This document shows, in pieces, positions 14,509-54,258 of a DNA stretch of 54,299 bases. The position numbers and the translations under genes are program-made. Numbering within the stretch: position 1 is the stretch's first letter; every line of letters starts with the position of its first letter. The notes beneath the pieces were generated by a model, which saw only the letters and a program-made list of their open reading frames with translations, had not been told where the DNA came from and searched no databases. This stretch comes from a virus (taxonomy: Duplodnaviria > Caudoviricetes): IMG/VR virus record IMGVR_UViG_3300034101_001509, positions 1 to 54,299 of that record, one strand, 5' to 3'.

Positions 14509-15996
14509 TCAGACTGTACCACCAGCATTTAATCCGTGAAGATTCTTAACTGCAAAGAGGCGGTAGTAAGAATTGGTATTTTGTTCAAGACCATCTTCTG
14601 GTTTTCCGGAACCGAAGGTGCTTGTACGACCACCAGCGAATGGATTGGCGACTAGACCGTAACGAGTCTTGAATCCGATCTTTGGTTGGAAGGTATCTTG
14701 ACCAACTGCTCTGACCATTTGTAATGGAACGTATGGGCAGTAGAAGAATCCTGCGTCATATGGTGAGGTTCCCTTGTATCCAACAGTAACGAAGTTGACG
14801 TTGTTGGCAACGAATGGATCGATGTAGACCTTGAACTTATTGTTGAGAACACCAGCGAAGACGTTACCAGTATCATCTACTTGCATATCAACATTGAGTG
14901 CTGGTGAGAGGTTGAGGAATCCACCCATTGCGAGTGCTGAAGCAACGTCAGCAGAGCATACGATGAAGTTACCCTTACCTCTACGAGTTTCCTTAGCAAT
15001 TACGTTTGCTTCGCGTTCAATTTGGAACATAAGTCCACGGAAGCGTTCTGCTGACCAACGACCGTCTGAATCGTTCAGGAGGTCATACACACCACCGTTT
15101 GTGGTGTCTGTAGCATAACCAGCGAGGTCGCGTTGACGGCAACCAGTCTTAGCAACATAATACATTGCTCTGAGGATTTCTCTGTTGATTTCGTTCATGA
15201 TTTCAACTGAGAGAATATTTGCGAGTTCTGCTTCAGCATCAAGACCGTGAACAGCGCGAAGGTCTTGTGCGAGTTCTGTGGTGTATTCTGCCTTGAGAGC
15301 GCGTGAACGTGCTTGTACCGCGACTCTTTCAATGCTGAATGCCATTTCACGGAAGTCAGCAGTTGAAGGATCCTTACCAAGAGTTTCAGCAGTTGCTGTT
15401 AACATTCCACGGAATTGTGAGAATGTATCTTGTCTTGTAGCATATGTATCACCAGCTGCTAAAAGACCATTGAGAGCACCGAGTGTGTGACCAGCGAGAA
15501 TTGCTGCGTAATTAGCACCACCAGGACCAGAAGCACCACAAAGACCAGAGAACTTAGCCCATGGTTCATCGAAGAGTGCTTCTTCGCCACCAGTGTAACC
15601 GTTGTTATCATTTCCGTAACGAGCGCGCATTGCAAAGATAAGACCAGTTGGAGCACTCATTGGTTGAACGCCAGCAATGTCGTATGCTACGACGTTAGGC
15701 ATTGCGCGACGAACGAGTGAGATAAGAACTGGATCGTAACCAGCGAAGTTTCCTGCTGCGCCAACTTGACCAGCAGCAAAATTACCACCGATGCCGATTG
15801 GTCCCATGCTATTTTCAAAAAGATTGCCAGCAGCTTTTTCTTCTGCTAATGCTCTAACTTGATTCTCAAGAAGCATCGCAGTGACTCTTCTCTTGTGAAG
15901 GTCATTAATTGATGGCATATCTTGGTGATCAAGAACGGGTGTCCACTTTTCCATAAGTGAATCGTAAGGTGTACTTTGATTAAAATCTAATGACAT
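14509..15996 (-). CDS. 23: Major capsid protein gp23
   Basis: LISLVRRAMP, GVQPMSAPTGLIFAMR, SRALKAEYT, EINRE, YDAGFFYCPYVPL, FQPKIGFKTRYG. Confidence 0.99.
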   Translation of the reverse strand: MSLDFNQSTPYDSLMEKWTPVLDHQDMPSINDLHKRRVTAMLLENQVRALAEEKAAGNLFENSMGPIGIGGNFAAGQVGAAGNFAGYDPVLISLVRRAMPNVVAYDIAGVQPMSAPTGLIFAMRARYGNDNNGYTGGEEALFDEPWAKFSGLCGASGPGGANYAAILAGHTLGALNGLLAAGDTYATRQDTFSQFRGMLTATAETLGKDPSTADFREMAFSIERVAVQARSRALKAEYTTELAQDLRAVHGLDAEAELANILSVEIMNEINREILRAMYYVAKTGCRQRDLAGYATDTTNGGVYDLLNDSDGRWSAERFRGLMFQIEREANVIAKETRRGKGNFIVCSADVASALAMGGFLNLSPALNVDMQVDDTGNVFAGVLNNKFKVYIDPFVANNVNFVTVGYKGTSPYDAGFFYCPYVPLQMVRAVGQDTFQPKIGFKTRYGLVANPFAGGRTSTFGSGKPEDGLEQNTNSYYRLFAVKNLHGLNAGGTV

Positions 15997-21064: not shown

Positions 21065-21076
21065 TATTTATTTATT
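21065..21076 (-). promoter_or_regulatory. Late promoter variant(s) AATAAATA for gene 19
   Basis: Overlapping AATAAATAAATA just upstream of the GAGG RBS. Confidence 0.5.
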
Positions 21077-22298
21077 AGAATGTAGATGAAAGATCCTTGT
21101 TTGTAAGGGTGATTGTGACGTAATTAATAGAAGTTGTTGGTTTAATTAAAATATCAGCAACAAAGTAATTTGCTTCAATAATTTCTGGTGTATTGTTTGA
21201 AGTATCACAGACTACACGATATGCTTGAATTCCTCTTTGACCAACTATACGATCTAAGAAACCTTCTGCTGCTAATTTAAATCGTGTTCTTGTTATAGCA
21301 TCATTTTGCTCAAAGAGTATTGAACGAGCAACTGGTGCTAGTGACTTCTTGATATACATGAAAAGTCTTGAAACATTAATTCTGGATAGAGTAGAAGTTT
21401 CAGTTTCACCTGTTTTGTCTCCAAACAGAATTGTTCCAGATCCAGGGAAAGTTACAACTGGATTTGCTCTATTTGTGTTATTATAAACAGTATCTTGTTC
21501 ATCTGGAGTTAAATTTCTCTTCAGTCTAAGAACATTAAGAATTCTACCACGTCTATCGCCAGCGGGTGAGAACCATGGGAAAGCATCTCTATCTGTTCTT
21601 ACTAAGCAACCAGCAACATCTGCTGCTAATGGTGTTTCAATTGTATAAAGTCCAGATGTGTCTAGGTGTAATTTTTCACCATATACACGAATATAATTAT
21701 AACTATTTGATCCGCTGGGGAATGTTAATCCAGCTGGTGCTGAAGTAGACGATGGAGTATATACTACTCCAATTACAGGTTGATCTCCAGTTGATCTAGA
21801 TTCTACTACGGTTGTTACATAATTACCATAAAGATTACCATCAGCACCAGAATTTCCACCTTGAAAGATAACATCAAATCCTAATTGTTTGAAGTCACTT
21901 GTTGGAGTCGTGCCGAATCCAACGAAGCAACCAGCACCATATTGAAGGAAGTTGTTTACAGGCCACCATTCGCCAGAAAATCCTGCTGAAATACCAGTTC
22001 CAGTATATGTTCCGTTCAAATATGAAGCAGCACAGGATCCAACACTATAAAATGTGTTTCCAGACGCATTTGCTATACCACCCTGTAATCCTACGATATA
22101 ATCAGTGAGTCTACCATACCAATCGGAAGCATTTGGTACAAAGAAATAACCTTGATCGCGTTCTGCGGTTGTTCCTGCTAATATCTTTAAAGCAACTGTT
22201 GGATTCCAAACAGCTCCAATTGTTGATGAAAAATCTTCAGTTATAGGAACAACTAACGATTCATCAATTATTTTAAATTTAACATTTGGTCTTGCCAT
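21075..22298 (-). CDS. 18: Contractile tail sheath protein gp18 (compact, 407 aa)
   Basis: PWFSPAG..RG, NPVVTFPG, FGDKT, RINVSRLF, FEQND..TR, VVCDTSNNTP, IKPTTSINY. Confidence 0.95.
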   Translation of the reverse strand: MARPNVKFKIIDESLVVPITEDFSSTIGAVWNPTVALKILAGTTAERDQGYFFVPNASDWYGRLTDYIVGLQGGIANASGNTFYSVGSCAASYLNGTYTGTGISAGFSGEWWPVNNFLQYGAGCFVGFGTTPTSDFKQLGFDVIFQGGNSGADGNLYGNYVTTVVESRSTGDQPVIGVVYTPSSTSAPAGLTFPSGSNSYNYIRVYGEKLHLDTSGLYTIETPLAADVAGCLVRTDRDAFPWFSPAGDRRGRILNVLRLKRNLTPDEQDTVYNNTNRANPVVTFPGSGTILFGDKTGETETSTLSRINVSRLFMYIKKSLAPVARSILFEQNDAITRTRFKLAAEGFLDRIVGQRGIQAYRVVCDTSNNTPEIIEANYFVADILIKPTTSINYVTITLTNKDLSSTF

Positions 22299-24099: not shown

Positions 24100-24556
24100 T
24101 ATCTACATCTTCCGTTGGTATCGCTTTTAATTGACTACGAGATTGATTAATTAAATTTTGAAGATCTCTTGTAGATCCTACAAATATAGAATTATTTGTT
24201 GTATTCTTGACTACTTTATTAGTTCCCAAAGCATCTGCTGTAGTTTTATGAATATTCATTAAATCTGTATTCACTTCACTTATGGTTTTAATTAATATAG
24301 ACGCTACTTCATACGCGCGAGGAGAATCCCCTGCTTCAGCAACACGCATAATTCCATCAAGAGATTCAAATCCTTTATTAATCAATTCCTTCATATTTTT
24401 ACGAGCAGAATCAAAGTCTTGACGAACTTGATCTTTTCTTTTTATTTTTACTTCTTTTATAGGAAAAGTATCTTCTTTGGGTTTAACTAACTCGGTATTT
24501 TCTGCCAAGTCTAATATTTCTGTAAGTTTTTCTTCTGCTGTTTTCTTTTCAATCAT
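24089..24556 (-). CDS. 16: Terminase small subunit gp16
   Basis: DFDSARKN, SPRAYEVA, NNSIFVGSTRDLQ. AGGAG RBS before the ATG at 24556. Confidence 0.92.
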   Translation of the reverse strand: MIEKKTAEEKLTEILDLAENTELVKPKEDTFPIKEVKIKRKDQVRQDFDSARKNMKELINKGFESLDGIMRVAEAGDSPRAYEVASILIKTISEVNTDLMNIHKTTADALGTNKVVKNTTNNSIFVGSTRDLQNLINQSRSQLKAIPTEDVDNDS

Positions 24557-25305
24557 GGCCAATCTCCTACGACTGGAGTGGTAGAACCTGTAATGTAATC
24601 TCCAGTATATCCAATATCACCAACATAATAATCGACTGCGGTAGATCCTGGATCGGCAAAGAAATTGACATCTGTTCTTTCTATTAGTCCACCTGTTCCA
24701 CCACATATCTTTGGATAAATGTACGTCTTTGCCGTAAAATCAAAAGTACTAATAAGTGCTCTACGATTTTCAAAAGTTCCTTCATAATCCTCGTTTAAAG
24801 AAACATTGTTTAATACAAAAGGAATATCCACAGAATCATGAATATCATTCATTTTTATTGTCACTGTATAATCTGGAGCAAAAAATGGAACAATCTGTTC
24901 AATTATTTGTAACATATCGTCCATATTTCTAGTAAATGCGAATAGAGAAAAATTAATATTATATGGAACTTCTGCGTATACTTTTTTGAGAACTCCGTTT
25001 ACAACTTCTGCTCTTTGCGTTGTTCTATTCAATTTTCTTGCGGGATCATACATCAATGTTGATATTTCAAATCCAAGTTTTGGAAGAACAATTTGTACTC
25101 TACTATTTTTAGATAAACTGCTTTCTTGAGTAAGTCTCCATATAAATTTTTCTTTACTGCCATAACTTAAAGGTACTCTAATTTTTTCAATTTCAGTGCC
25201 ATCTTCTTCAAATCGTGTGACATATATTGATTCAAATAATGAACCAAATGCTATAACTATTTTTCTTATTGATTCATTATAAAAATATTGACTAACTGTA
25301 AACAT
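24553..25305 (-). CDS. 15: Tail sheath stabiliser / completion protein gp15
   Basis: YFYNESIRK..IAFGSLF, VPLSYG.KEKF, VPYN, QIIEQIVPFF, DYEG. Confidence 0.95.
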   Translation of the reverse strand: MFTVSQYFYNESIRKIVIAFGSLFESIYVTRFEEDGTEIEKIRVPLSYGSKEKFIWRLTQESSLSKNSRVQIVLPKLGFEISTLMYDPARKLNRTTQRAEVVNGVLKKVYAEVPYNINFSLFAFTRNMDDMLQIIEQIVPFFAPDYTVTIKMNDIHDSVDIPFVLNNVSLNEDYEGTFENRRALISTFDFTAKTYIYPKICGGTGGLIERTDVNFFADPGSTAVDYYVGDIGYTGDYITGSTTPVVGDWP

Positions 25306-26228
25306 TAAGAGCACTCCTCGGAAAATGGATTATCTCTACTAAAGTTTAGAGTATTATCAGCTTCCTCGGCATATATATCATTTTCAATTTCATCAACACC
25401 AGAAATAGGATCAATTGAAAGATTGACATTTGTTTCATCAACATCTAATAGATAATATTCTACTCCATTAATCTTATTTTTGACAGATTGTGTTCCAGAA
25501 GATCCTGCCACAAATTGTCCGCTTACACCTTTAATATAAGTTGTATTTCCTGTATATTCTATAACAGTTCCTTCAGCGGTAGCGTTTGCGTATACTGCTG
25601 TAGCACCAGTAACGCCATTTACTTGAAACACAACATCACCTCGTTTGAGTGTTGCCGAACCGGAAACGGGAGAACTAGAAAGAGTAAATGTATACATGTT
25701 GTATTTTCTCTTTTCCTCGACATCATCAATTTCAGTAACTCCGGTTTCAATTTTCTCAAATGAATATGTAAAGAGTTCACATGTTAATGTGTAAATGTTT
25801 AATGTTCCAAATTGGAAAAATGGAATTTTATCTTCAACATAATTTATTTCAAATATACTTTTATTAAATGGAAAATATATTAAATCACCTTCTCTTGGTG
25901 TTCTAATTGTAGAATCTTTTGAATATATTTCTTTTTCAAATCTTGTTTTTGATACCTGAAGTGTAACTCTATCTGTAATATTAATTCCAAATTTATTAAT
26001 GATATTCATTTGTCCACCAAAGGCTGTAACATTTTGAATATACATTTCTATGGTGTAAGCATTTTTAAATTGAGATATAGGATCTTCTCCAAAAATTAAA
26101 TCACGATTCAAATACTCACGTGGAATATAAATCATGTCTCTACCCATCGCCTTGATTGTTTCTACAGTCAAGTCGTCAAGTAAAGTTTGTTCTCCAACGT
26201 ATTCTTTGAAATATGGATTTGTTGCCAT
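25305..26228 (-). CDS. 14: Neck protein gp14
   Basis: MATNPYF, YIPRE, IEMY, KFG, PREGDLIYFP, FFQFG, CELF, NPF. Confidence 0.95.
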   Translation of the reverse strand: MATNPYFKEYVGEQTLLDDLTVETIKAMGRDMIYIPREYLNRDLIFGEDPISQFKNAYTIEMYIQNVTAFGGQMNIINKFGINITDRVTLQVSKTRFEKEIYSKDSTIRTPREGDLIYFPFNKSIFEINYVEDKIPFFQFGTLNIYTLTCELFTYSFEKIETGVTEIDDVEEKRKYNMYTFTLSSSPVSGSATLKRGDVVFQVNGVTGATAVYANATAEGTVIEYTGNTTYIKGVSGQFVAGSSGTQSVKNKINGVEYYLLDVDETNVNLSIDPISGVDEIENDIYAEEADNTLNFSRDNPFSEECS

Positions 26229-26231
26229 TTG

Positions 26232-27032
26232 TTATCCCATTATAAAATCTACTGGGAGTTCATGTGTTAAGTAGAATTCTTGTTCTATTGCTGCTATTTC
26301 TGCCATAGCATCCTGAAATATTTGTTGTCCCTTAAATGTAATTCCACCTGGAAGTTGTACACCGTCATACTTTAACATATTTGATCCCCATTGTCTTTTG
26401 ATCAAAGCAGTTAGATATTTTTTCAAAAGACGATCATTATAAATTTCTGTATATTTGTCAGGATCTAATATTGCGTATGATTCTATTACAACATATTGAT
26501 TTGCTGTTATGTCTCCAGCAAGAGCATCAAGATAAATTTTATTTGTTACTTTGCTAAATCTAATTGATTTTTCCGGACTAAAAAATTGTTCAAGTAAACT
26601 AATATACGACATAGTTACATGATAACCAGCAAGTGGAGTTGATTGACTTCCGTTTAATCCTCTATTGATTCCAAAGTAATCTGTTAATGCTAATTGATAA
26701 CGAATATCAAACATATTTACACCAGATAAAGTTCCAAATCTAAAAACTTTAACAACAGAAAGAATATCAGTTCCTGTTGGACCATTTGGATCACCGGAAG
26801 GTGTTTGTATATCTTCAATTTCAATAAATCCACGATCTATATCAGTTTGTGTCATCTGATATTTAAAATATACTTTTTGAACACCATCAAAATGTCTTTC
26901 TTGAAAAAATTGTAGTGCTTCGTCAAGACGATCTTCGCATTGTTGGTGATCTACGTTTATTTGAATAACAGGATGTCCCAATGTACGAAGACAATGTTCT
27001 ATTAGTGTTTGTCTTGAGTCTGGTACTGCCAT
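26232..27032 (-). CDS. 13: Neck protein gp13
   Basis: LRTLGHPVIQINV, ERHFDG, ALIKRQWG.N..KY.GVQLPGG, DFIMG. Confidence 0.96.
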   Translation of the reverse strand: MAVPDSRQTLIEHCLRTLGHPVIQINVDHQQCEDRLDEALQFFQERHFDGVQKVYFKYQMTQTDIDRGFIEIEDIQTPSGDPNGPTGTDILSVVKVFRFGTLSGVNMFDIRYQLALTDYFGINRGLNGSQSTPLAGYHVTMSYISLLEQFFSPEKSIRFSKVTNKIYLDALAGDITANQYVVIESYAILDPDKYTEIYNDRLLKKYLTALIKRQWGSNMLKYDGVQLPGGITFKGQQIFQDAMAEIAAIEQEFYLTHELPVDFIMG

Positions 27033-27647: not shown

Positions 27648-29150
27648 TTAGTATAGAATAATACGTCTAAAGAATAAAGCAGTTTCAACGTTTCTTTTAT
27701 TTATAAGAACAGTTCGATAATTTATAGGAATTATATTTGAAAAAGATTGTCCATAAACAAAAGATTTATTATTTAATTTACTACGATTTGTTTTTGAATT
27801 TAAATATTTTGTATTAAAAATACTAGACGAAATAACGTTAGCATATAGTTCAACATTATTTTCGAAAAGATATTGAGCATAGAAATTTAATTCATAAATT
27901 GAGGGAAGATAATAATCTATGAATCCATTTCTAGGTGTATTTTTAATTGTATTTGTAAGTGCTGTACTAAGTCCAATAAAATTATCAGCATTACCATAAG
28001 TATTATAATAACCATCCCACAAGGATGTTTTATAATCTACATCTAATTCATTTTCTAACAAAAATGGAACTGTATATTTTGTGGTATCGACAATTAATGC
28101 CCATTGACTATGTGTTCCTCCCTCGGGAGTGCCAACAAACCTAGAAGAATTTGGAGTTCCAAAATTTAAACTTCCGCGAATAACACTACTCTTTCCATTA
28201 TTTGGAGAAGGTTTGAATATTCCTATATAAATTCCACCTTGATATTCATCACCAACATTCAATTCTAAATCTTCAAAGGAAGATAAAGACATTTGTTGTG
28301 GTTGATATTTATTATTAATTTTTAATGGATTTGTTGGTTTTAATGAAGAGTTACAATATGGGTCGTCTGAATCTTGTTCTGGAACCCAATATCCATTACA
28401 TATTTCTCTGGGTGATATAGTACATGTATATTCATATGTACCATCAACAAGTTCTAATGTATAGCAAGATCCCATTTCAAAGCCTTGATATAGATTTGTG
28501 GACAATGCCATTCTAGTAACATATTCACTTGAGGCACATGTTATTGGAGATTGTCCAGCAATTAATGGTGGATTTCCACATCTACTATTTTCTGTAAAAA
28601 CAGAAGGATATACATCTGTAGATAAAGCAGCACAATCTGCTGATGTACAAACATCTTCACATTTTACATTTGTTGGCCAACCAGTATCTTCATCAAACTC
28701 TAAGTGACAACATGCTCTGGGTGCTCGAATATCTTGATCGTTTGAAACACAATAAGTTTCCCAATTACCATTTGCTAATTCTGGACAACTTCCTTCTGTC
28801 CACTTTCCACCAATTCTATTACATTCGCATTTTGTAACATTACTTCTTGTTCCCGATGTCAAATATGGATTTGACATTCCTTGAGAATATGTTGGTATTT
28901 GATTTAATTCTCCAGAAGTAACATATGAACATGAACAACAACAACCTCTTCTAGTATCTACATCTGGACATACTACAGAATTAGTATCTTCCCCTTTTGT
29001 TGGTACAAAATGACCACCTTCATTAAAGCACTCTATAAATGATTTTGAACTTCCAGTTCCTCCAGTTATACCACAACATACTCCATAAGCATTTAATAAC
29101 TTTGAGTAATCTATTGCTGGTTTAATTCTGGAACGAAATTGTAGTGTCAT
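27648..29150 (-). CDS. Cys-rich putative virion protein with a C-terminal Lcl/DUF1566-like domain
   Basis: Degenerate GxCC repeats; VGDEYQGGIYIG, DGYYNT, DYYLPSIYEL, terminal FFRRI. Confidence 0.6.
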   Translation of the reverse strand: MTLQFRSRIKPAIDYSKLLNAYGVCCGITGGTGSSKSFIECFNEGGHFVPTKGEDTNSVVCPDVDTRRGCCCSCSYVTSGELNQIPTYSQGMSNPYLTSGTRSNVTKCECNRIGGKWTEGSCPELANGNWETYCVSNDQDIRAPRACCHLEFDEDTGWPTNVKCEDVCTSADCAALSTDVYPSVFTENSRCGNPPLIAGQSPITCASSEYVTRMALSTNLYQGFEMGSCYTLELVDGTYEYTCTISPREICNGYWVPEQDSDDPYCNSSLKPTNPLKINNKYQPQQMSLSSFEDLELNVGDEYQGGIYIGIFKPSPNNGKSSVIRGSLNFGTPNSSRFVGTPEGGTHSQWALIVDTTKYTVPFLLENELDVDYKTSLWDGYYNTYGNADNFIGLSTALTNTIKNTPRNGFIDYYLPSIYELNFYAQYLFENNVELYANVISSSIFNTKYLNSKTNRSKLNNKSFVYGQSFSNIIPINYRTVLINKRNVETALFFRRIILY

Positions 29151-32125: not shown

Positions 32126-32129
32126 TTAA

Positions 32130-40672: not shown

Positions 40673-43027
40673 TTAAATCGGATAGCTTGCGTCAGCAACC
40701 ATATGTAGATTGATTACATCATAAGGAACAGCACCTTTATTAATATTTATTTTAACAGAAGTAGTATCTGCTGTCGTACTAACTGTGGCAGTGCCTGGTG
40801 ATCCTGCCGATCTTAATTGATCGTTATAACCTTTAGTTCCAGAAGTGGACTTTAGATCTCTGTATGCTGTGTAATTATACATTTCGTTTACTACACCTTT
40901 TGGAGAATAAATTGTAATAGTTGGTTCTTCTCGCATTTCAGTGGGCAACTTGTAAATTGTATATGGTGTTGTTGGAAGATATGTAAATGAAATTGTATTT
41001 AATACAGGATCTGTAGTATTCAACATTGTCTTTGTACCGATAGTTTGTGTATTAGTATAAGTTGAATAATAAAATCTTCTTGCTTTATTTAATTTACTTT
41101 CATATTTTTCAAATATATGCGGAGGTGAACTATAAGAACTAGAATAGACAACCATAGATGCTAAACTTACATATAGACTTGTTCCAATAGCTACCGCATT
41201 ATCATATGCTTCTTCAATCAATGGAATCAGATCAATACCAATTTCAACATAATCATCAGAATAAGTTCCTGCGGATAAACTAGAAACATCATATGTTAAA
41301 GTGTATTTTGTCCAATTAGTTGTTAAATCTATAGAACCTATTGTTTCTTTGCTAATCTGGGAACCACCAGAGTAACGAGCAAAATATACATTTGCTGAAT
41401 AGTTAATCATGCTACATTTTGCGTATAGACTTACAGTCACATCCCCACCATTAAATGTTTCTATATCTTCTATAACATGACCAACTGAATATTCTCCACC
41501 CGCAGGGTCTGCTCCACCGGGATCTGCTATACATTTAAGATCAATATAATATTGTGGAGTTCCTTCGACCTCTACGCTTGAAACACTAAAGGATTGACGT
41601 TGAATATATTGTGAACTTCCAGACGCAATACCACTCTGTCTTCTTATCCAATTATCAGCAAAATAAACATCTCCGGAAGTAGTATATTGTGAATCTCTAC
41701 CAGTTGATCTCTGCCATATTGAAAAATCACCATTGAATGCGAAATTCATTCCATTTGTTAATAATTCTGAACTTGCTGCTGATTTATATGTGCTAACAGA
41801 TCCAAGATATGAATTTGCTGATGGACGCATAGAAATATGCCAATAGGTTGGAGAAGTATCAAATACTTGACCAACAACTAAAAGACCACCATCAGCATCA
41901 AATCTATAATTATCTTGTAATCTGAGTTGACCAGTAACCCCAGATGCTGGTACGTTATATGTAAGACCAGATAGAACCCAAACGCCTCTTTTTGTTGCTG
42001 CTGTACTTATACTATTAGGAATGACTGTTGTAGATCCGTGTGTTATTATTTTATAAACATTATAACTTCCACCAGATTCATCAACACTTTCAATCATACC
42101 AACAACAAAATCTTCTTCGGGTGTAAAATCAAATACTGATATATTTGAAGGAGTAGATATTACACCATCTAAATTATTAGCAAAGTTTTGACTACCACTT
42201 AAGAACCAACCGTCAATGGCAGTTCTTCCTGTATTTTCTAACCATTGATTGAAGAATGTATTTCCTGCTAAAATATCTGGAGCAAATGAAACAAAGTTTC
42301 CTGCGGAAAATCCATAACTACTTGGATTTGTTATAGATTTAGAAATTTGAACATAAATTTTATTTGTTCCGGAAAGACCTTGTGATCCAGAATCATTTAA
42401 ATAATTTCCTCTATATTGAAGAACTACACCAGAAGTAGCACCAATTCCTAATATTACAGGTTTTGAAACATAACCAATTGTTGTTGGTTCAGTAGTTGTT
42501 AAATATCCAGCAGTTTGTCCAGAAAGAAAATAAACACAACCTGGAGATAAAGTTCCGCCAGATACTGTTTGAAAATTTCCATCAATTCTTCCTAGAACCG
42601 TAACTACAGAATAACTTGAATTTTGAGAAGATATTACTCCCAGAACCTCTGCTGAATCTGGATCATCTGCTCTTGCTGCGGTATATCCTGAAGAATTTAT
42701 TCTTACAACAGATCCAAATGTATATCCAGAAGTTCCTGTTGTTATCCCGGGAACTTTAAACGAACTATTTGGTATTACAACTTCTCCATTAAAACTAACA
42801 GGACCAGAAAATGTTAATCCTGTTTGTATGTTTCCAGAGGTTCCACCGATTGATACTGTAACAAGTCCTGTTGATAAATTTGTGGATGCTAAAACTCCAT
42901 CACCACTTGTAACACCAGATACAGTTATTTGATTCAATTTTGAAATGATTTCATCATTTTCTTTTATGAACCAATCATAAAATGTAGATGAACCAGTTAA
43001 TTGTGATATTGTATCATTAAATGCCAT
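40673..43027 (-). CDS. Putative tail fibre / virion protein with a carbohydrate-binding-like C-terminal half
   Basis: N-terminal TFYDW..KEN; NFAFNGDFSIWQR...YFADNW...LTTNWTKY...RRFYY...MREEPTIT pattern common in phage fibres. Confidence 0.6.
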   Translation of the reverse strand: MAFNDTISQLTGSSTFYDWFIKENDEIISKLNQITVSGVTSGDGVLASTNLSTGLVTVSIGGTSGNIQTGLTFSGPVSFNGEVVIPNSSFKVPGITTGTSGYTFGSVVRINSSGYTAARADDPDSAEVLGVISSQNSSYSVVTVLGRIDGNFQTVSGGTLSPGCVYFLSGQTAGYLTTTEPTTIGYVSKPVILGIGATSGVVLQYRGNYLNDSGSQGLSGTNKIYVQISKSITNPSSYGFSAGNFVSFAPDILAGNTFFNQWLENTGRTAIDGWFLSGSQNFANNLDGVISTPSNISVFDFTPEEDFVVGMIESVDESGGSYNVYKIITHGSTTVIPNSISTAATKRGVWVLSGLTYNVPASGVTGQLRLQDNYRFDADGGLLVVGQVFDTSPTYWHISMRPSANSYLGSVSTYKSAASSELLTNGMNFAFNGDFSIWQRSTGRDSQYTTSGDVYFADNWIRRQSGIASGSSQYIQRQSFSVSSVEVEGTPQYYIDLKCIADPGGADPAGGEYSVGHVIEDIETFNGGDVTVSLYAKCSMINYSANVYFARYSGGSQISKETIGSIDLTTNWTKYTLTYDVSSLSAGTYSDDYVEIGIDLIPLIEEAYDNAVAIGTSLYVSLASMVVYSSSYSSPPHIFEKYESKLNKARRFYYSTYTNTQTIGTKTMLNTTDPVLNTISFTYLPTTPYTIYKLPTEMREEPTITIYSPKGVVNEMYNYTAYRDLKSTSGTKGYNDQLRSAGSPGTATVSTTADTTSVKININKGAVPYDVINLHMVADASYPI

Positions 43028-43769: not shown

Positions 43770-45533
43770 TTATAATCCTTTTACGATATTTATACGAACA
43801 ATTACAGAATCTACATCTGCTATTGGAAGATCTGTTTCTAATTTTGTAGTAGATAATACCTTTCCGGTATACTGTACAAATACAGGAGTATCTAATATTG
43901 AAATTATACTAGATCCACCCTTACTTGATCCATTTGTGGGACCAACTAAACTAGATCCAACTAAATCTTGTGCTTTTGTATAATCTAAATTTTTAAACTC
44001 TGTATATGAAATATAGGTTGGTCCTGAACTTACATCAAGAGATCCGCTGACCTTTGTATTTGTGTTTGTAAATGTCTCTCCATCAATACCATAAGAAATA
44101 TCATATTCTTCATCTGCTGCTGGTAGTAGTGAAGAACTACTAATATTTGAAACTTCTGCTTTTACAGTTGTTCTAAAAATATAATCTAATTTCTTATTTA
44201 AATTTGAACCAGTTACTATATCAGAAGATAATGAATTTCCGCGTGGATCTTCTACAAGACCAAACATATTTACTGAAGATGGTAGAATTATTCCTGAACT
44301 GTCTAAACTTGTTTTATCTATTCTAGCATCAATCATTACATGTTGAGCATTTAATATAGAAACAGGATCAAATGCTAGTCCATCGATTACATCAAGATTT
44401 ATTGATATTTTTGATATTAAAGTTAAAGAAGTCAACGAAGCACTTAAAATGGAAGAATCTATACTTAAAGTTACATCCGTATAACCAGATCCACGTTCTA
44501 TAACTTCAATTCCATTTATAACATATGAAGAATTTAAAAGTTTAGTTAACAGACGAATTCTTCCACCTGTTCCTGTATTACTTGTTAATGTTAATTCTGG
44601 ATTTTCTTCAGTTACAATTAAATTAGATTCAGAAAGACTAGAAAGATCTATGAATGCTGAAATAATAGATCCTTCCTCCACCGAATCATTTGTATTGACT
44701 TGATACAAATAGTAATATGGAGAAGCAGTTGAAATTTGATTTTGGTTTATAAGTTGTCCAATTTCAGCATATTCATCAACGATTGTAATTGTATTTGGAA
44801 CAGTTTCGCTGGAAGAATAAAACCTAGAGACAAATTTATCATTATTTTTCATTAAATAATAACAATCACTACACGATATTGAATCTGCTATTGTAAATAA
44901 ATCTCCCTTTTCATATTCAAATGTTCCAGAATCGTCATCGGTATTTAATGACATTTTAGCATATACACCACACTGACCGACTTCAGCAGTATTGTTATCA
45001 CAAAATTCTCTTGTTTGTAATAATTGATTTTTTTGATTTTCAGAATCAAACAATTCAAAAGAAATAACTGGCATCCATTTACTGGTTATAAATCTTTCAA
45101 TTGAAGGTGTGATACGGTATAGCGGTTTCCATGAATATCCATCCGAATATGTTTGTATTCCAGAAGTATGATATGGACGAATATTAGAAACATTTTCGCC
45201 TATTAAATCTTTTCTGTTTAGAGTATTATCAGAAATACACAAATAAATATATTGATTTTGATCATTATATACATAATAATTTCCAGAATTTTCTGTAGTC
45301 CCAGACCATGGAATATATGGTCTTTTTTGAATCCATTTGATATTAGGAACAACTGGATATACACTACTCTGACCAACTCTAATAGAAAAATCAGATTGCT
45401 TCCAAACATCTAATGCTGATTGATTTGAATTTGAAGTTGCTTGACTATTATCAGAACCAACAAAAACAAATAATTGCTTTTTAGTTCCAATATCTTTTAT
45501 AAAATTTTTAATTGTTGTGCTTTTTATGCTCAT
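43770..45533 (-). CDS. 8: Baseplate wedge subunit gp8-like
   Basis: VVPNIKW...YYVYN...IYLCISDN...P.HT...DGYSWKPLY...F.T..WMPV; synteny. Start taken as the ATG at 45533 (ATGA overlap). Confidence 0.85.
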   Translation of the reverse strand: MSIKSTTIKNFIKDIGTKKQLFVFVGSDNSQATSNSNQSALDVWKQSDFSIRVGQSSVYPVVPNIKWIQKRPYIPWSGTTENSGNYYVYNDQNQYIYLCISDNTLNRKDLIGENVSNIRPYHTSGIQTYSDGYSWKPLYRITPSIERFITSKWMPVISFELFDSENQKNQLLQTREFCDNNTAEVGQCGVYAKMSLNTDDDSGTFEYEKGDLFTIADSISCSDCYYLMKNNDKFVSRFYSSSETVPNTITIVDEYAEIGQLINQNQISTASPYYYLYQVNTNDSVEEGSIISAFIDLSSLSESNLIVTEENPELTLTSNTGTGGRIRLLTKLLNSSYVINGIEVIERGSGYTDVTLSIDSSILSASLTSLTLISKISINLDVIDGLAFDPVSILNAQHVMIDARIDKTSLDSSGIILPSSVNMFGLVEDPRGNSLSSDIVTGSNLNKKLDYIFRTTVKAEVSNISSSSLLPAADEEYDISYGIDGETFTNTNTKVSGSLDVSSGPTYISYTEFKNLDYTKAQDLVGSSLVGPTNGSSKGGSSIISILDTPVFVQYTGKVLSTTKLETDLPIADVDSVIVRINIVKGL

Positions 45534-46663
45534 GAACATGCCGATCCTGCGTTTGGAGATCCTATATCTGCCGAATAACATAATTCTAACATTGTGTTGA
45601 TATTTATATCTTTAAAATTAAATACGTCAGTTTGGGTTGTCCAGGAAGGGAATAAGTAAGTTGGTCCAGTAAATCCAGAAAAACTAGCACCACAACAACC
45701 AGTATTTGCTGTCAATCCAACATAAGTTATTCCTGCTACTGGTGTAGTTCCGATATAAATTCCAGCAGTTCTTCCCGAATAATTAAAAGATATACCATAT
45801 GGAGCATAATTTTTTAAGAATGGATATTCGCATACAAATGGTGCTGTTTCATCAAATGTTGGTCCCTGATAATCTGCTAGAGTTTTTTCAAAAACAACTT
45901 TTATTCCAGCAGGATGCATTATATTTAAATAATTTTCTTTATATTTGCTGAATAGTATTCCAACCTTTAATAAATATGACCAATCTTGAATCCAATTACT
46001 GTCTTGTATTCTAGAACCATTTAAATAACTTCCACTTAATGTTCCTATCTCCTCATACCCACCAGTTCCACTTGGAAACTTAAAGTTTTCATCATAAAAA
46101 CGACCACCATTAAGTCTTAATATATTTTTCTTTGGTGTTTCTACATTTATAGATTCTTCATCAATTCCATATAGTCTAGTAAAGAAATATTTAATTCCAT
46201 CTTCTGTTGTTTTCTTTTGATATAAAGAAGTTTTTATATTTTTAAGAAAAAGACGAAGATTTTCTTCTCTTACAACACCGCCATTAGTTTCTAAGGAATT
46301 TACATTAAATCCATCAGCAAATGAAAATGCTAATTTTTCTAAAAATTGAGATTTAGTTTCATCAATATCAATTAGACTTAAAAAATCTTGACTTAATTCA
46401 TATTGCGAACCTAAAGAACTATCGCAATATAACCAATCATAATATTTTTGTATAAAATCAAAAATAGATAAAGTTGATTGATTATTTTCTAATCTTTCTT
46501 GTTTTTCTCTCAAAACCCAATCCGGTATTTGTTCTGTTATATCGTATTGAGTTCCACAACCAATATTAAATGCTATATTTTGTAAATCTAAAATAGCATC
46601 AGAAAGTTTAGATAATCTAAACCTTACTGTTGGTTGTTGACTGTTGAGTGTTGTTGAAAGCAT
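45530..46663 (-). CDS. 7: Baseplate wedge initiator gp7-like (short)
   Basis: QIPDWV...FIQKYYDWL, DIDET, IKTSLY..K.T...FF..LYG, SRIQDS...Q.WSY, HPAG. Confidence 0.8.
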   Translation of the reverse strand: MLSTTLNSQQPTVRFRLSKLSDAILDLQNIAFNIGCGTQYDITEQIPDWVLREKQERLENNQSTLSIFDFIQKYYDWLYCDSSLGSQYELSQDFLSLIDIDETKSQFLEKLAFSFADGFNVNSLETNGGVVREENLRLFLKNIKTSLYQKKTTEDGIKYFFTRLYGIDEESINVETPKKNILRLNGGRFYDENFKFPSGTGGYEEIGTLSGSYLNGSRIQDSNWIQDWSYLLKVGILFSKYKENYLNIMHPAGIKVVFEKTLADYQGPTFDETAPFVCEYPFLKNYAPYGISFNYSGRTAGIYIGTTPVAGITYVGLTANTGCCGASFSGFTGPTYLFPSWTTQTDVFNFKDININTMLELCYSADIGSPNAGSACS

Positions 46664-48846: not shown

Positions 48847-51800
48847 TTATTGACCACCCAATACTCCTATAGGCGTTTGCGATTTATTTGGATCATAATG
48901 TAAACCGTTTCTAGTTAAAGTTAATATAAAGAATGAACTCTTTACTCCGTAAATCATTTGTACAATTTCAGCAACCAACCAACGACCTGAAATTTTCTTG
49001 TATTCATTTGCTGTTTCTTCTGAAACATCATTTGCGTTTATTACTTCTACAATATCACCAATTTTGACATTTTCATTTGGTGGAATTGTAATTTTAATTT
49101 GTTGAGCATTTATTTGATTTGTCTGTGCTAATCTTCGAAGAGGAAGATCTAATGGTGTTTCCCAGAAAGTAGCATATGTACGGTCATATGCTAAATAATC
49201 TTTGAATTTAGATCCTTGTTCTGGACAATTACAACTACATGGAGAAGTCGGATCTATAAAATTACAACCCAAATAGTCTTTTCCTAACACTTCCTCTATT
49301 AGTTTACATTCATTTAGATCATTATATAACTTATAAAGTTCAAGATAAGTTGGTTCGGGTTCTGATGGAATCAAATATTGTGCCGGACAATTACAGTAGG
49401 GTTCAGCAGTACATCCATATCCTGACGGAATGGATCCACTAACTAAAGCATTTGGATTGGCACACTTAAGACCAATACTTTCACATGTTATATTCTTTGA
49501 TCTCGAAACGACTGTAAACTGTAAAGCAAAATTTCGATCAAAGAATTCATATTCCGTATCAACTGGTGGTGTAATTAATCCATACTCAGTTTCTCCGCTC
49601 AAATCATACTTCCAAATGTCTGTACTTACTATAGATGGACGATATAAAACATAATTAGCAGCAAGATAATTCATCAAAGAATCATTAAAATATTGATTCA
49701 TTGAATTATTAAGTGGATTTATGTGAGTAGAATCATCAGAATCGATATAGAATGATACTGACTGATCATTATTATTAAATAATGATTTAGCATTTGGAGT
49801 TAAACTCATCCAGTGCTCAAATTCACTTCCGTACCAATTCTTCCAATAATTTGGAGAAATTGTAAATATTGCTTTTCCTCCAAACATATCTCTTGCTTTT
49901 GTATTTGGAGATTTGAACATATTAGCAAATCTAACAGGAATGAAAAGATTTCTTGGCACAAATAAAGACCACCAAGATCTATGTGGTTTTAGTTTTCTAT
50001 AACTGTTTGGTAAAATATAAGAACCAACTACCGAAGTTCTATACAATGGATCAAATTGTTTTCCAGAACTTACACCGTAGTGATATAAAGATTCCATCCA
50101 ATCTTGAGAGTCATTTTCAAAATAATAACCACCACCATTGTGGAAATCTAAATCATAACCTCCACCATGTAAGTCTTCTTGTGTCGGATCATATGAATAA
50201 TATGGGAACTCGGTTTCAAATCCGGGTTCAGGCCATAGATCCATTCCATTATAATCTGTGCTCAGATAATCTGTTTTAGAAAGAACCGATCCAGTATCGT
50301 GATTCCACCATCTATAATAATTTCCTTTATCAATTCCTTGTAATTTTCTATTTACTGGAATATCATCTTTTATTTTCTTAACGGCAACATCAAATCCATA
50401 AGGATCCATCCCTATGACCGAAACATTATATTTTACACCTTGTCTACCGAAAGGTCCGGGAGTTAATTGTACAAGATATGGTAAGAAATATTCAACACCA
50501 GCATCTCTTATAAATCCATTTGGGAAATCTTGTATTCTGTCGAGTCCTATTGGATTTTTAAATTCAATACGAACATAAGAAGAAATTTCTTCTTTCTTTA
50601 TATTCGGTGGTTTTTTACCATCAGTGTCATAGAAATTAAATGTATTTCTAAAATTTTGTGTATTTACGGCATCTAAATCTGATTGAGCATTGCCATATGA
50701 AGAAATATTAAATTTTCCTACACTGTTTATATCTGCTAAACTATTTAAATTAATATGTAAAGAAGCATCCTCGACATATTCATTTGATCTAAATGAGGGT
50801 CCAGTTTCAGTAAACGGTGTATTGTCTATAAATGACGTAGGATCATCTGTCCCATCAGCATCTTTGAAACTAAACCAACTGTGTGCTTCTCTAGAACTTA
50901 TAAATCCTGTTTCATTATAACCTTGATCATAATATGGGTGTTTCGTACTACCCTGATCATTAGCAAAGAAAATATCATATAACCATTGACCAGTTAAATT
51001 TCCAGTTAAACCAATCTTATTTGCTAAAAGTTCATATCTACTTCCACGAATTTCTTTTCTAGTAATTTTCTTTATGTTTTGTAAAGATAGTGGAGAATTT
51101 ACACCACCAGAATCTCCATTTCTAAAAATATTTTCTCCTGGTGTTTTAGAGAAGAAAAACGCATTTCTATTATACCATTCGGTGTACGATAATGTCCATT
51201 TTTGATTGAATTCTTGAACTACTTTATCTCGTAATTGAATATACAATTCTTTCTCAACTTCGAGGACTTGTATTTCTGCAAGGCAAGTTCTTCTCAAAAC
51301 TTCCAAAGCAGTTGAACTCAAACAAGTAGTATTGTAGCAACCATCGGCGTTTAAACACTCTCTAGTAGTTGAAACTGTATTTCTATTCGTTATTGCTGGA
51401 ATTAAACCACTTTCACTGCCGTAATCAAAAAATGACCAATCTTTTATATCCTCATCCCAAAGATATGGAGCAGCATAAAGATATATTGGAGAATATGTTC
51501 TGGCAGCGAGTTCTGTCGTATATTTAATGAATCCACGAATTATTGGATCGTTAGAACAATCATGAAATGCTTCTGGTAAAACATATTTTATGTCTTCTAA
51601 TGTTGGAAGACTAGAAGGTCCAGTTGGGCCTGTCGGACCTGTTGGTCCCGGTGGTCCCGGTGGTCCGGGTGGTCCCGGTGGTCCGGGTGGACTAATGATT
51701 ACTGTACCACCGGGACCAACACAGGCCTCACAACTAATAACTTGGCTTTGAGGAGAACAAGCTGATGCTGGTACTCTTGTACAAAATTTTGTAACACCAT

Positions 51801-54258
51801 TTGGATGGGTTGTACAACAGAATACACAATTTTGTGAGAATTCGTCACAGAAAAAACCACTACCAGGACCACCACCAGGACTACCACCAGGAGGACCAGG
51901 AGGACCGGGTGGTGAACCTCCACAATCATCAAAACATCCCAACTGAGCGACAGCAGCGTTAACTTCTGCTTGATTAAAGCAACTACTTACTTCCTTCTCT
52001 CCAACACCACATTGTGGTAAGGGTATGCCGGGTATATTTTCAAATACAGTCAGTGAACACGAATAACAAGGATCTCCTGGAGCTCCAGATCCACTAGTGC
52101 AAACAACACAAGAAACAGTATCTTGTGCCACTGCTCTAAATGTTACAGTATCTCCAATAGATCTATTTAAGAATTGATTTGTTTGTGGTTGTGTACCAAA
52201 TACAACTTGACCTATACCTTTACCAGCAGGTATTGTAGTCGAAGGTAACATACCAAATTCACATTGATTAATTGGCCAATCTGTTATCACTTCACCAACA
52301 ATAGCATCTCCGACATATCTAAATCCTTGAGTCAAATCTATTGGTCGTTCACCATTCGATTGTTTATCAATCAAAACGCTATTAAAAATAGCATCAGCGT
52401 TTTGCTTATATGATATAACTCTTGAATTTACAAATAAATTTAAATCAGAAATTCTTTGATTTATTTTGTTTATGACAATATCATAAAGTCTAGTTGCTCT
52501 ATTCAACACAAACTCAGAATAAGCGGTTGGAACTTCTGGTCCTGTTATGTTAAAAAACTGACCTATGCTTTGATTATATGGTTCTTTAGTTAAATCATAC
52601 GAATATGTTAAACCATACTGATTTAAAGTATTTCCGGAATCATAATTTAAAAGATCAGTAAATGAACCAGCGGCAACTATTTTATAGTCTTCTTTATATT
52701 CTGAAAAAATTCCAGTTGGACCAAATAGTGCGTTATATGTAAACCCACCAACTGGACCTGGATTATTAAACAATGCGATATCAGCAGTTGATCCTAATGC
52801 TCCATTTTCGTGACAGCAAACTGTACATCTATATGTTTCCCATTTTCGTTTGATGTTCTTTTTTCTGGCATATTCTTGTCTTTTACTTTTTAAAGGTTTT
52901 CTAATTTGTTTTTCTATTCTTTCAAATGTAGAAAATTCAAGATCTGTCAGATCAAATTGTGGTTGCCATGATTGTTTTGACCAAGGAACACTCGCTGTCT
53001 TTCCATAAACTTCCCATTCTTGTGGAGTTGGTGTATTTAAAAAATTCTTATTATAATATCCATAGATTTGATCATCAACTCTAGCAGATTGTTTTGGTTT
53101 TCCATTAGGAAGAATGGGATTAGTATCAAATGTATCTGGCACTAATTTATAATCATCAATTTGAACAATATCATTGTATCTTTCACTATAGTTGTAAGTA
53201 ATATCCTTTGATTTCATAGACTCTAAAGAATCTGTAAAATCAATATATGGATTATCGTAGTTGGGATCAAATCTTCTATAAAAAGAAAATAATGAACCAC
53301 TATTTAATAAATTTTGAATATTATATTCTCTAAAAACTTTAATTTCAAATATCTGCTTTGGATTTGTTTCATCAAGTGTTACTAAAAATCCATCAACAGG
53401 ATCTTTAGGTTTATCAGTAAAACCATTTCTTAACATTTTACTAATAGATCTAAAGTTCCACCCGTTTCTATCTTCCCACCAAAAATAATCAGAAGAATAT
53501 TTTGAAAAAGTACCATCCCATGCGTAATTTGTTAAATATTTAAATAATTGAGAAAGTTTTACTTGACCCTTTCTCTTCATCCAAGGATATGAAACGTGAT
53601 CATGCTTTAACCAAATTCCAGTCCTGGATTCATCAATTTTATTTACTGGTAAATTAAATTTCTCAAATATTAAATTAACTAGACCTTTTTCTTCAGAATC
53701 AGTATCTGTAGAAAGTTTTCCAATAAAGTCTTGTTCTTCTTGTAAAATTGTTTGATTATAATCTGGAAGAAATAGTTCAGAACTTATTAATTCTAGTTTC
53801 CAAACAGAAATTCTTTCATTAATTGTAGATATTTGACTTTTTGTGCTGTCGTTTGATACTAATCTAGCATCATATATGTGAAAATTATATGTTGTTGGTA
53901 ATATACTTTTACCTAATTTAATTTTAATTTCTACTTTTTCGTTTCCATTAAATTGAAATTCATCAACCCAATTTCTAACATCTAAAACAATCATAGTTCC
54001 AAACATACAACCATCATATAAAGACTCTTTGATTGTTAGTGTTCGAAGAGGAGAATTGGCAGAAACTATTGGAGTCCAAGGAATTAAGTTAAAAGTTATT
54101 TTTTCTCCATTAGAATCTAATTTGCTCAAAATAACAGATTCTAATCCAGTTTCAAATGGAGTATTGAATTGATTAATATTATCAATATCAGAACCAGATT
54201 CTGGAACTGATAAACTAGCATTTATTATTTTATTTAATGTTTTAAATTCGCTGCTCAT
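48847..54258 (-). CDS. Giant baseplate hub protein (gp27-like termini) with a large Cys/Pro/collagen-containing insertion
   Basis: N-part I.ESL....MFG...VLD...NGNEKV.I and YFWWEDRNGWNFRSISKM. C-part IKITIP.N..VKIGD.V...ISGRWLV..I...LTLTR. Confidence 0.6.
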   Translation of the reverse strand: MSSEFKTLNKIINASLSVPESGSDIDNINQFNTPFETGLESVILSKLDSNGEKITFNLIPWTPIVSANSPLRTLTIKESLYDGCMFGTMIVLDVRNWVDEFQFNGNEKVEIKIKLGKSILPTTYNFHIYDARLVSNDSTKSQISTINERISVWKLELISSELFLPDYNQTILQEEQDFIGKLSTDTDSEEKGLVNLIFEKFNLPVNKIDESRTGIWLKHDHVSYPWMKRKGQVKLSQLFKYLTNYAWDGTFSKYSSDYFWWEDRNGWNFRSISKMLRNGFTDKPKDPVDGFLVTLDETNPKQIFEIKVFREYNIQNLLNSGSLFSFYRRFDPNYDNPYIDFTDSLESMKSKDITYNYSERYNDIVQIDDYKLVPDTFDTNPILPNGKPKQSARVDDQIYGYYNKNFLNTPTPQEWEVYGKTASVPWSKQSWQPQFDLTDLEFSTFERIEKQIRKPLKSKRQEYARKKNIKRKWETYRCTVCCHENGALGSTADIALFNNPGPVGGFTYNALFGPTGIFSEYKEDYKIVAAGSFTDLLNYDSGNTLNQYGLTYSYDLTKEPYNQSIGQFFNITGPEVPTAYSEFVLNRATRLYDIVINKINQRISDLNLFVNSRVISYKQNADAIFNSVLIDKQSNGERPIDLTQGFRYVGDAIVGEVITDWPINQCEFGMLPSTTIPAGKGIGQVVFGTQPQTNQFLNRSIGDTVTFRAVAQDTVSCVVCTSGSGAPGDPCYSCSLTVFENIPGIPLPQCGVGEKEVSSCFNQAEVNAAVAQLGCFDDCGGSPPGPPGPPGGSPGGGPGSGFFCDEFSQNCVFCCTTHPNGVTKFCTRVPASACSPQSQVISCEACVGPGGTVIISPPGPPGPPGPPGPPGPTGPTGPTGPSSLPTLEDIKYVLPEAFHDCSNDPIIRGFIKYTTELAARTYSPIYLYAAPYLWDEDIKDWSFFDYGSESGLIPAITNRNTVSTTRECLNADGCYNTTCLSSTALEVLRRTCLAEIQVLEVEKELYIQLRDKVVQEFNQKWTLSYTEWYNRNAFFFSKTPGENIFRNGDSGGVNSPLSLQNIKKITRKEIRGSRYELLANKIGLTGNLTGQWLYDIFFANDQGSTKHPYYDQGYNETGFISSREAHSWFSFKDADGTDDPTSFIDNTPFTETGPSFRSNEYVEDASLHINLNSLADINSVGKFNISSYGNAQSDLDAVNTQNFRNTFNFYDTDGKKPPNIKKEEISSYVRIEFKNPIGLDRIQDFPNGFIRDAGVEYFLPYLVQLTPGPFGRQGVKYNVSVIGMDPYGFDVAVKKIKDDIPVNRKLQGIDKGNYYRWWNHDTGSVLSKTDYLSTDYNGMDLWPEPGFETEFPYYSYDPTQEDLHGGGYDLDFHNGGGYYFENDSQDWMESLYHYGVSSGKQFDPLYRTSVVGSYILPNSYRKLKPHRSWWSLFVPRNLFIPVRFANMFKSPNTKARDMFGGKAIFTISPNYWKNWYGSEFEHWMSLTPNAKSLFNNNDQSVSFYIDSDDSTHINPLNNSMNQYFNDSLMNYLAANYVLYRPSIVSTDIWKYDLSGETEYGLITPPVDTEYEFFDRNFALQFTVVSRSKNITCESIGLKCANPNALVSGSIPSGYGCTAEPYCNCPAQYLIPSEPEPTYLELYKLYNDLNECKLIEEVLGKDYLGCNFIDPTSPCSCNCPEQGSKFKDYLAYDRTYATFWETPLDLPLRRLAQTNQINAQQIKITIPPNENVKIGDIVEVINANDVSEETANEYKKISGRWLVAEIVQMIYGVKSSFFILTLTRNGLHYDPNKSQTPIGVLGGQ
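51617..51690. repeat. 9-bp period repeat encoding collagen-like (GPP)n(GPT)n
   Basis: ggtggtccc/ggtggtccg units; PPGPPGPPGPPGPPGPTGPTGPTGP. Confidence 0.9.

Follow-up and report, generated by a model that had tools for sequence, protein, structure and literature searches.

The AAH and TibC heptosyltransferases O-glycosylate autotransporters by recognising a structural motif in their beta-helix repeats. Glycosylation of mycobacteriophage virions was reportedly described by Freeman et al. in 2023, and we know of no G-x-T sequon from that system. Its glycosyltransferases (GTs) are phage-encoded. Glycans have been reported at the C-terminal ends of the capsid and tail-tube subunits (PMC12619734). 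SgtA O-GlcNAcylates Thr residues in GPT peptides of BclA3 and also accepts Ser in vitro (PMC7157674). Here we analyse the G-x-T units of the virion proteins encoded on a 54,299-nucleotide stretch of tailed-phage DNA (the complete IMG/VR record IMGVR_UViG_3300034101_001509), the whole of which we call the window. Every gene of the window lies on the minus strand. Positions 14509-54258 form a T4-like structural module, as identified with PHROGs and Pfam. Replication and recombination genes lie upstream of this module, and GT genes occupy 1045-4044.

A first-pass annotation of the window had pointed out isolated G-x-T units, with G-x-S and G-x-C variants, in the virion proteins and proposed that they are an O/S-glycosylation sequon for the phage's own GTs. 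We find that the G-x-T excess is real and is Thr-specific, virion-specific and specific to a clade of uncultured marine T4-like phages. As to its role, we tentatively favour a structural building block of the outer virion proteins, and we weigh this against the sequon and other explanations below.

Results

G-x-T is over-represented in the structural proteins of the window

We evaluated the 26 structural proteins of the module after masking collagen tracts, defined as runs of at least three G-x-y triplets. The masked proteins contain 116 G-x-T units, compared with 76.1 expected from whole-protein shuffles and 80.1 from 20-residue local shuffles, so Gly/Thr composition is insufficient to account for them. 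Local shuffles in 10-, 20- and 40-residue windows agree on the excess. It persists under a stricter mask of runs of at least two triplets (86 vs 62.5, z 3.3), and when that mask is padded by three residues (80 vs 59.8). When residue pairs were scanned at gaps of 0 to 3, G-x-T came out top among 375 at gap 1 (z 4.4), although the gap-0 pairs TP (z 4.3) and LN (z 4.1) reach similar values when the window is taken by itself. The 18 upstream non-structural proteins hold 11 units where 11.0 are expected.

The excess is confined to Thr. Contrary to the first-pass annotation, neither variant is enriched in the 26 proteins, with G-x-S at 86 vs 89.4 (z -0.4) and G-x-C at 31 vs 26.1 (z 1.1), and G-x-A is depleted (28 vs 49.1). 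The window shows no excess of the N-glycosylation sequon either (N-x-T 61 vs 69.2; N-x-S 91 vs 83.7). Gly and Thr codon usage at the G-x-T sites equals the background, which places the signal at the protein level. Together with the frame specificity of GGNNNNAC, which occurs 146 times in frame vs 13 and 2 times out of frame, this rules out a DNA-level cause.

Most of the individual sites named in the first-pass annotation were recovered, in the 784-aa protein, the 377-aa baseplate protein, the sheath, gp14, the major capsid protein and the hub. In gp15 we found GGT, GST and GST but no GYT. The 784-aa protein carries SGVT (residue 38), IGGT (61), TGLT (70), PGIT (94), SGYT (101 and 114), SGGT (157), SGQT (170), IGAT (196), AGNT (255) and SGLT (354), and three further units that had not been listed. 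The 377-aa protein, previously labelled gp7, has SGRT, AGIT, VGLT and SGFTGPT as described. The motif had also been called sparse elsewhere. This holds for portal and scaffold, which have none where about 2 and about 1 are expected, while in the non-structural proteins counts are at expectation and the sparseness follows from low Gly/Thr content.

The excess is specific to one clade of T4-like phages

Using the gp6-like protein, we located 20 IMG/VR loci, namely the window and 19 relatives at 35-84% identity. The observed/expected ratio (O/E) of G-x-T is 1.26-1.88 in all 20. In eight non-redundant relatives G-x-T heads the list of 393 pairs, with 402 units vs 269 (z 8.9), in contrast to rank 125 of 393 in T4, Melnitz and S-RIM50 pooled. 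The relatives share ancestry and are not independent events, so the point of this comparison is the contrast with the controls.

Ten other T4-like phages processed with the same pipeline gave structural O/E values of 0.81-1.19. T4 has 85 units vs 83.9 in 31 structural proteins, Melnitz 55 vs 49.1 and 112 vs 119.1, and cyanophage S-RIM50 79 vs 71.3 and 101 vs 102.6. Vibrio phage D484, Rhizobium phage N34, Acinetobacter phage AB-Navy71, P-SSM3 and Salmonella phage SFP10 span 0.81-1.19, while the window reaches 1.55 under the same filter. The cyanophages S-T4 and S-SM2 stand at 1.08 and 1.19, the latter value being spread over all protein classes rather than specific to structural proteins. A generic effect of beta-rich proteins is ruled out by these ten flat controls, and the contexts of G-x-T in T4 fibres differ from those of the clade.

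Outer virion proteins carry the excess

To compare protein classes we pooled the window with three long syntenic relatives, G001 (108 kb), G006 (157 kb) and G007 (123 kb). Structural modules of these four genomes contain 498 units vs 369.8, and their 205 non-structural proteins 186 vs 210.7. Outer virion classes account for 377 vs 277.6 (z 6.8), and the inner or non-surface classes (scaffold, core, protease, portal, tube, terminases, gp25 and gp6) for 36 vs 39.4.

Enrichment was seen in capsid (O/E 1.71), sheath (1.66; 24 vs 14.4 over the four genomes), gp14 (1.80; 21 vs 11.7, z 3.1), the 784-aa protein (1.51), the 377-aa protein (2.28; 19 vs 8.3 over three genomes, z 4.0) and the hub (1.81). 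Two fibres are also enriched, the 1055-aa fibre (1.80) and the 1411-aa fibre (1.74, from the window copy alone, n=1). Pooled classes without enrichment were the 992-aa fibre, the 500-aa, 603-aa and 243-aa proteins, and gp6. Within the window, counts outside the tracts are 9 vs 8.9 in the 992-aa fibre, 15 vs 6.6 in the 1055-aa fibre and 19 vs 11.1 in the 1411-aa fibre. A second fibre module present in the relatives has 154 vs 105.2.

Two neighbouring observations concern these proteins. The homologue of the window's 500-aa protein in G007 (8178-16061) is 2628 aa long and, unlike its neighbours, depleted in G-x-T (10 vs 21.0). Residues 827-899 of the 1055-aa fibre (32130-35297) match the Lcl C-terminal, C-type-lectin-like domain at E 3e-6, below the Pfam cut-off.

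The excess lies in a longer, collagen-like context

Ser and Ala are enriched before the Gly, and the Thr is followed by Ala, Gly or Phe and then by Gly or Pro. In the window, [SAT]GxT occurs 45 times vs 19.4 and GxT[AGF] 46 times vs 15.4, while GxT followed by any other residue (70 vs 64.9) and the reversed TxG (79 vs 80.1) are close to expectation. The eight relatives have 65 copies of [SAT]GxT[AGF] vs 13.1. Its Ser version is no higher in them (24 vs 13.9) than in the controls (38 vs 21.7), and GxT[AGF] is flat in controls (93 vs 90.5). Both residue classes were picked after inspection of the site contexts, which inflates the z values of those contexts. The middle residue in relatives is often hydrophobic (Ile 56 vs 31, Tyr 39 vs 22, Leu 45 vs 29), with Asp and Lys depleted. 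Two controls that lack GT10, Vibrio phage D484 (10 vs 3.9) and Salmonella phage SFP10 (8 vs 3.0), show the five-residue motif weakly, indicating that some general structural preference exists.

The excess thus lies in [S/A/T]-G-x-T-[A/G/F](-G), an echo of the Thr-rich collagen unit T-G-x-T-G. The window contains four collagen-like tracts of at least five triplets, rich in GPT, GAT and GNT. Three lie in the fibres (32000-32089, 35145-35234 and 39383-39481) and one in the hub (residues 859-882, 51613-51684), all nucleotide positions being converted from residue positions. Thr fills the third position of 62% of collagen triplets in the window and of 50-73% in three relatives, and the controls have no such Thr-rich tracts. 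The tracts are contiguous G-x-y runs with third-position Thr, as in BclA-type proteins, and the isolated units are not. The latter also fall outside the collagen triple-helix pattern (PF01391), 116 being counted outside runs of at least three triplets and 86 outside runs of at least two. PF01391 matches only the N-terminal tracts, below its cut-off, and 30 of the 116 sites lie within two-triplet units.

Sites are positionally conserved in the 784-aa family and shift in the capsid

The 784-aa protein has 163 metagenomic homologues, and all 14 of its G-x-T units lie within residues 38-365. Sixty members of the family carry 7-18 units each, with a mean of 12.5 vs 8.0 expected. Units at 38, 61, 70, 94, 101 and 114 are near-invariant, and their Thr is swapped mostly for Ser. 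Of the 12.5 sites per protein, 7.3 fall in nine columns whose occupancy is 50% or more. After these columns were masked the remaining sites were not enriched (5.2 vs 6.0 per protein), a comparison relied on at the 50% threshold only, as occupancy masking biases the observed count downward. The first-pass annotation had placed the motif in variable loops or tails. For the 784-aa family a sequon confined to variable loops is ruled out, the excess being in about nine conserved columns, while the capsid insert described below does fit that placement.

In an AF2 model of the 784-aa protein (pLDDT 84.5), DSSP assigns the Thr of 10 of the 14 units to coil, in many cases immediately behind a strand. 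The C-terminal half (40673-41930) resembles CBM4/CBM22 jelly rolls (Foldseek E ~1e-6), and the model suggests a receptor-binding baseplate protein. BLASTP matches residues 34-151 of the 375-aa protein to residues 100-207 of this family. The N-terminal units of the 784-aa protein read G-x-T-x-G-x-V/I, and the relatives' second fibre module contains plain N-G-x-T-G-x-V repeats, as in the 1152-aa fibre of G001 (35 units vs 19.2). Such a repeat fibre from a relative gave no Pfam match and nothing relevant among PDB sequences, and the G-x-T-rich regions belong to no family in Pfam, PHROGs or NCBIfam. Orthologues that are 37-41% identical retain the sites.

In 33 clade capsid proteins the hypervariable insert has 87 units vs 34.5 and the remainder 33 vs 66.4. 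Insert sites shift between lineages while their density is kept, and capsid residues 155-195 have no alignment to T4 gp23. The C-terminal extension HGLNAGGTV is absent from the T4, Melnitz and S-RIM50 capsids. Among 56 distinct clade capsid proteins the tail contains G-x-T in 46, G-x-S in only 3 and neither in 7, and it reads H-G-[N/Q]-T in most members.

The clade encodes a conserved and variable glycosyltransferase cluster

The GT operon of the window lies 25-50 kb from its fibres; in relatives it directly adjoins the second fibre module. GT10 and GT11 enzymes usually extend glycans. The product of the 221-aa gene was placed by Atlas with PF03407 and GT34-like clusters (score 0.98), and we take a GT-A-like enzyme as a lead only. 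The region 1-1075 has no GT9-like or SAM-methyltransferase match in Pfam, PHROGs or NCBIfam. Just upstream of the operon is a copy of TATAAATA, which we take to be the T4 late-promoter consensus. The motif has seven matches in the window, all on the coding strand, where 10.3 are expected by chance on both strands, so its number is not enriched. From this promoter-like motif, late expression of the operon may be inferred.

All 13 clade records tested gave a GT10 homologue; each of them covers, or probably covers, the locus. Two of these, G011 and G016, gave identical match values and may be the same phage. G007 was left out of the count, as its contig runs from inside the portal gene to the second fibre module and so is without the locus; it gave no GT10 match. 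In G001, G006 and seven other records, the GT10-like and 221-aa genes keep their place beside gp44, gp62 and a regA-like gene. In G008, G009 and G010 the GT10 match establishes presence in the record only.

The first-pass annotation proposed testing whether the excess accompanies the GT cluster across related phages. This test has no power within the clade and fails outside it. All 13 clade records carry GT10, whereas both a GT10 match and a G-x-T excess are missing from T4, Melnitz, S-RIM50 and five more controls. The PF00852 search was positive in none of the five further genomes and positive in clade records, and T4, Melnitz and S-RIM50, the sole controls searched for GT2 (PF00535), gave no match above cut-off. 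As none of the 13 records is an operon-less clade member, co-occurrence within the clade carries no weight. Outside the clade, however, 22 phage records, mostly cyanophages, encode a homologous GT10 among sugar-nucleotide genes, and cyanophages S-T4 and S-SM2, which have a 35-37% identical GT10, show little or no excess.

The cluster is found at 1-4044 in the window, 83212-93927 in G001 and 71302-81605 in G006, and also in L226, L228 and L229. Its ends are conserved, with the GT10-like and 221-aa GT-A-like genes by the regA-like gene and a gene of ~400 aa at the far end. The 8-12 kb between them varies among close relatives in the manner of an O-antigen locus. In G001 it includes GT11, two FkbM-type methyltransferases and an RXYLT1-like gene. 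The second fibre module lies at 94157-103692 in G001 (L032/L033), 81631-90891 in G006 and 11495-19999 in L229; the window ends before it.

Genome layout

The structural module encodes the major capsid protein, scaffold, protease, portal, tube and a short sheath, both terminase subunits, the neck proteins gp15, gp14 and gp13, three large fibres, gp6- and gp25-like wedge proteins and a 1803-aa hub or tail protein (Table 1). The nearest named phage is Methylophilales phage Melnitz, with a match confined to ~400 nt of the capsid gene at 72%.

Table 1. Position of virion and glycosyltransferase features in the window, with G-x-T counts given as observed vs expected
Feature	Coordinates	Strand	Evidence
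Major capsid protein, gp23-like, 495 aa	14509..15996	-	phrog_138, E 5e-152; T4 gp23 structures, E 7e-82; 5 G-x-T vs 2.5-3.2
Capsid hypervariable insert, aa 126-196, G-x-T at shifting positions	15409..15621	-	
Capsid C-terminal extension HGLNAGGTV	14512..14538	-	Alignment with T4, Melnitz and S-RIM50 capsids
Short tail sheath, 407 aa, 5 G-x-T	21075..22298	-	phrog_23
Neck and sheath-stabiliser proteins, gp15-, gp14- and gp13-like	24553..27032	-	phrog_227, phrog_460, phrog_211
Three large fibre proteins (992, 1055 and 1411 aa), Thr-rich collagen-like tract at each start	29147..39529	-	
375-aa protein, domain in common with 784-aa protein	39534..40661	-	BLASTP; 5 G-x-T vs 1.8-2.1
784-aa baseplate-attached protein, CBM-like C-terminal half	40673..43027	-	14 G-x-T vs 8.1
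377-aa baseplate protein (earlier 'gp7'), 7 G-x-T in residues 267-336	45530..46663	-	7 G-x-T vs 2.4-3.0
1803-aa hub or tail protein, GPP/GPT collagen tract	48847..54258	-	phrog_350 at C-terminus; 14 G-x-T vs 7.5
Glycosyltransferase operon: GT10-like 3211-4044, putative GT-A-like (221 aa) 2556-3221, GT10+GT2 fusion 1045-2559	1045..4044	-	Pfam PF00852, PF00535
T4-late-promoter-like motif TATAAATA	4062..4069	-	18 nt upstream of GT10 start codon

The sheath compares with 659 aa in T4, and its sheath-family match covers the C-terminal half only. Elsewhere, a SET-domain protein (8756-9484; PF00856, E 1e-12) lies between Rad50-like and Mre11-like genes; G006 has a homologue at 35% identity, and G001 has none at that position. 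Two homologues of the clamp-loader gp44 (G015:C1:5691-6662 and G019:C1:21625-22578) each contain one in-frame stop (TGA and TAA, respectively), which may be sequencing errors or mark broken genes.

Discussion

These data allow us to propose, as a reading that falls just short of an even chance, that the G-x-T unit is a recurrent structural building block of outer virion proteins in this clade. Most copies occupy conserved positions, either immediately behind a beta-strand or within short stretches flanked by Gly, and their spacing is repeat-like. The Gly would make a turn and the Thr would start or cap a short exposed strand, the units being placed in trimeric fibre, baseplate and surface-loop segments with no modification required. 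We infer this role from an excess borne by context (GxT[AGF] in the window and [SAT]GxT[AGF] in relatives), from positional conservation, hydrophobic middle residues and plain repeats, and from the weak motif in GT10-less phages; outside the clade, moreover, the presence of GT10 is no predictor of the excess.

Several observations weigh against a purely structural unit. The flat ratios of the ten other T4-like phages indicate that general protein chemistry yields no excess. The excess extends over unrelated folds (capsid, sheath, neck protein gp14, baseplate, fibres and hub), beyond any one domain family, and in the capsid insert the sites move while their density is kept, which resembles selection for the motif over a fixed turn.

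It is also possible, though less likely than the structural reading, that the Thr of [S/A/T]-G-x-T-[A/G/F] is an O-glycosylation acceptor for the phage's GT operon, in the tracts and in isolated copies alike. This would suit a motif that goes beyond composition, that is enriched in outer virion classes and absent as an excess from inner and non-structural ones, and that is found in the clade alongside the operon and not in the controls lacking GT10. The T4-late-promoter-like motif directly upstream of the operon, its variable gene content and its position in relatives next to a fibre module with a strong excess point the same way. So do the capsid insert and the C-terminal tail; mycobacteriophages reportedly carry glycans at the C-terminal ends of their capsid and tail-tube proteins (PMC12619734). 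The units also mimic the collagen unit T-G-x-T-G, and as a biochemical precedent SgtA, the neighbouring GT of BclA3, adds GlcNAc to Thr of BclA3 GPT peptides. In the same work, however, SgtA accepted Ser in vitro too (PMC7157674), whereas here neither G-x-S nor G-x-C is enriched. Further points against acceptor sites are the positional conservation in the 784-aa family, where sporadic sites are not enriched, and the hydrophobic middle residues and repeat spacing, which suit a structural unit. The families GT10 and GT11 are mainly associated with glycan extension, and no initiating protein O-transferase was identified. Cyanophages with a homologous GT10 lack the excess, and the clade offers no operon-less relative for comparison. 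The sequon of the first-pass annotation is neither shown nor refuted. None of the three refuting conditions named in that annotation counts against it, and only the one on composition was a real test. It and the structural building block are not mutually exclusive, as a structural unit can also be a recognition site.

It is unlikely that the exposed loops bearing the Thr do something else, for instance bind glycans of the host or the environment or receive a modification that is not glycosylation. The motif is surface-restricted and Thr-specific and shares its proteins with lectin-like and CBM-like domains, but nothing points specifically to such a function, and in the 784-aa protein no unit falls in the CBM-like half. 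Still less probable is the idea that the isolated units are functionless leftovers of (G-x-T)n tracts that decayed or slipped. Their T/S/A-G-x-T-G/A context is that of the tract unit and about a quarter of them lie in two-triplet units. Most sites, however, are in tract-free proteins (capsid, sheath, gp14, the 784-aa and 377-aa proteins), the excess survives two-triplet masking, sites are kept between diverged orthologues, and background codon usage gives no sign of recent repeat DNA, so that this reading is already largely refuted. An artefact of composition, local Gly/Thr-rich patches, paralogues or multiple testing is scarcely credible, since the near-equal scores of TP and LN in the window, the domain shared by the 375-aa and 784-aa proteins and the common ancestry of the relatives are outweighed by the agreement of the local shuffles, the first rank in the relatives and the ten flat controls.

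If the units are attachment sites, a tenable but far from assured model follows. An abundant, uncultured marine T4-like clade might O-glycosylate its virion surface (capsid insert and tail, sheath, neck, baseplate and fibres) at a Thr-specific mini-collagen sequon, using a late operon of conserved GT10-like and GT-A-like enzymes with hypervariable further transferases and methyltransferases, so that close relatives would differ in the glycans borne at shared attachment points. To our knowledge, this would be the first sequence-defined virion-glycosylation sequon in a tailed phage of Gram-negative marine hosts, and it would explain the late, hypervariable GT clusters of T4-like marine phages. 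It makes concrete predictions, specific Thr residues in specified proteins, that can be checked with no need to grow the phage. Should the units instead be purely structural, they define a clade-specific repeat vocabulary of fibres and baseplate, and the density of [SAT]GxT[AGF] becomes a simple sequence marker for virion proteins of an uncultured group.

We found no description of the G-x-T motif in the full-text literature, in searches that did not target the motif itself. Among known systems, AAH and TibC would be comparable in that a repeated short strand-loop-short strand unit serves as the recognition site of a cytoplasmic protein O-glycosyltransferase; they differ in that the window gave no GT9-like or heptosyltransferase match. 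Phage tail fibres and beta-solenoid repeats likewise have short units bounded by Gly, in which a hydrophobic residue recurs at a constant distance, although the clade repeats have no Pfam, PHROG or PDB sequence match and T4 fibre contexts are distinct. The mycobacteriophages belong to another phage lineage and host type; like them, the clade has phage GT genes, and its capsid has a C-terminal extension with a conserved G-x-T (46 of 56). Compared with BclA and BclA3, the units here are isolated in non-collagen proteins of a phage virion rather than a spore, the GTs are GT10, GT2 and GT-A-like, and Ser acceptance by SgtA has no counterpart in G-x-S enrichment. What the clade shares with them is the combination of collagen-like G-x-T tracts, here of GPT, GAT and GNT, and dedicated GT genes in the same genome.

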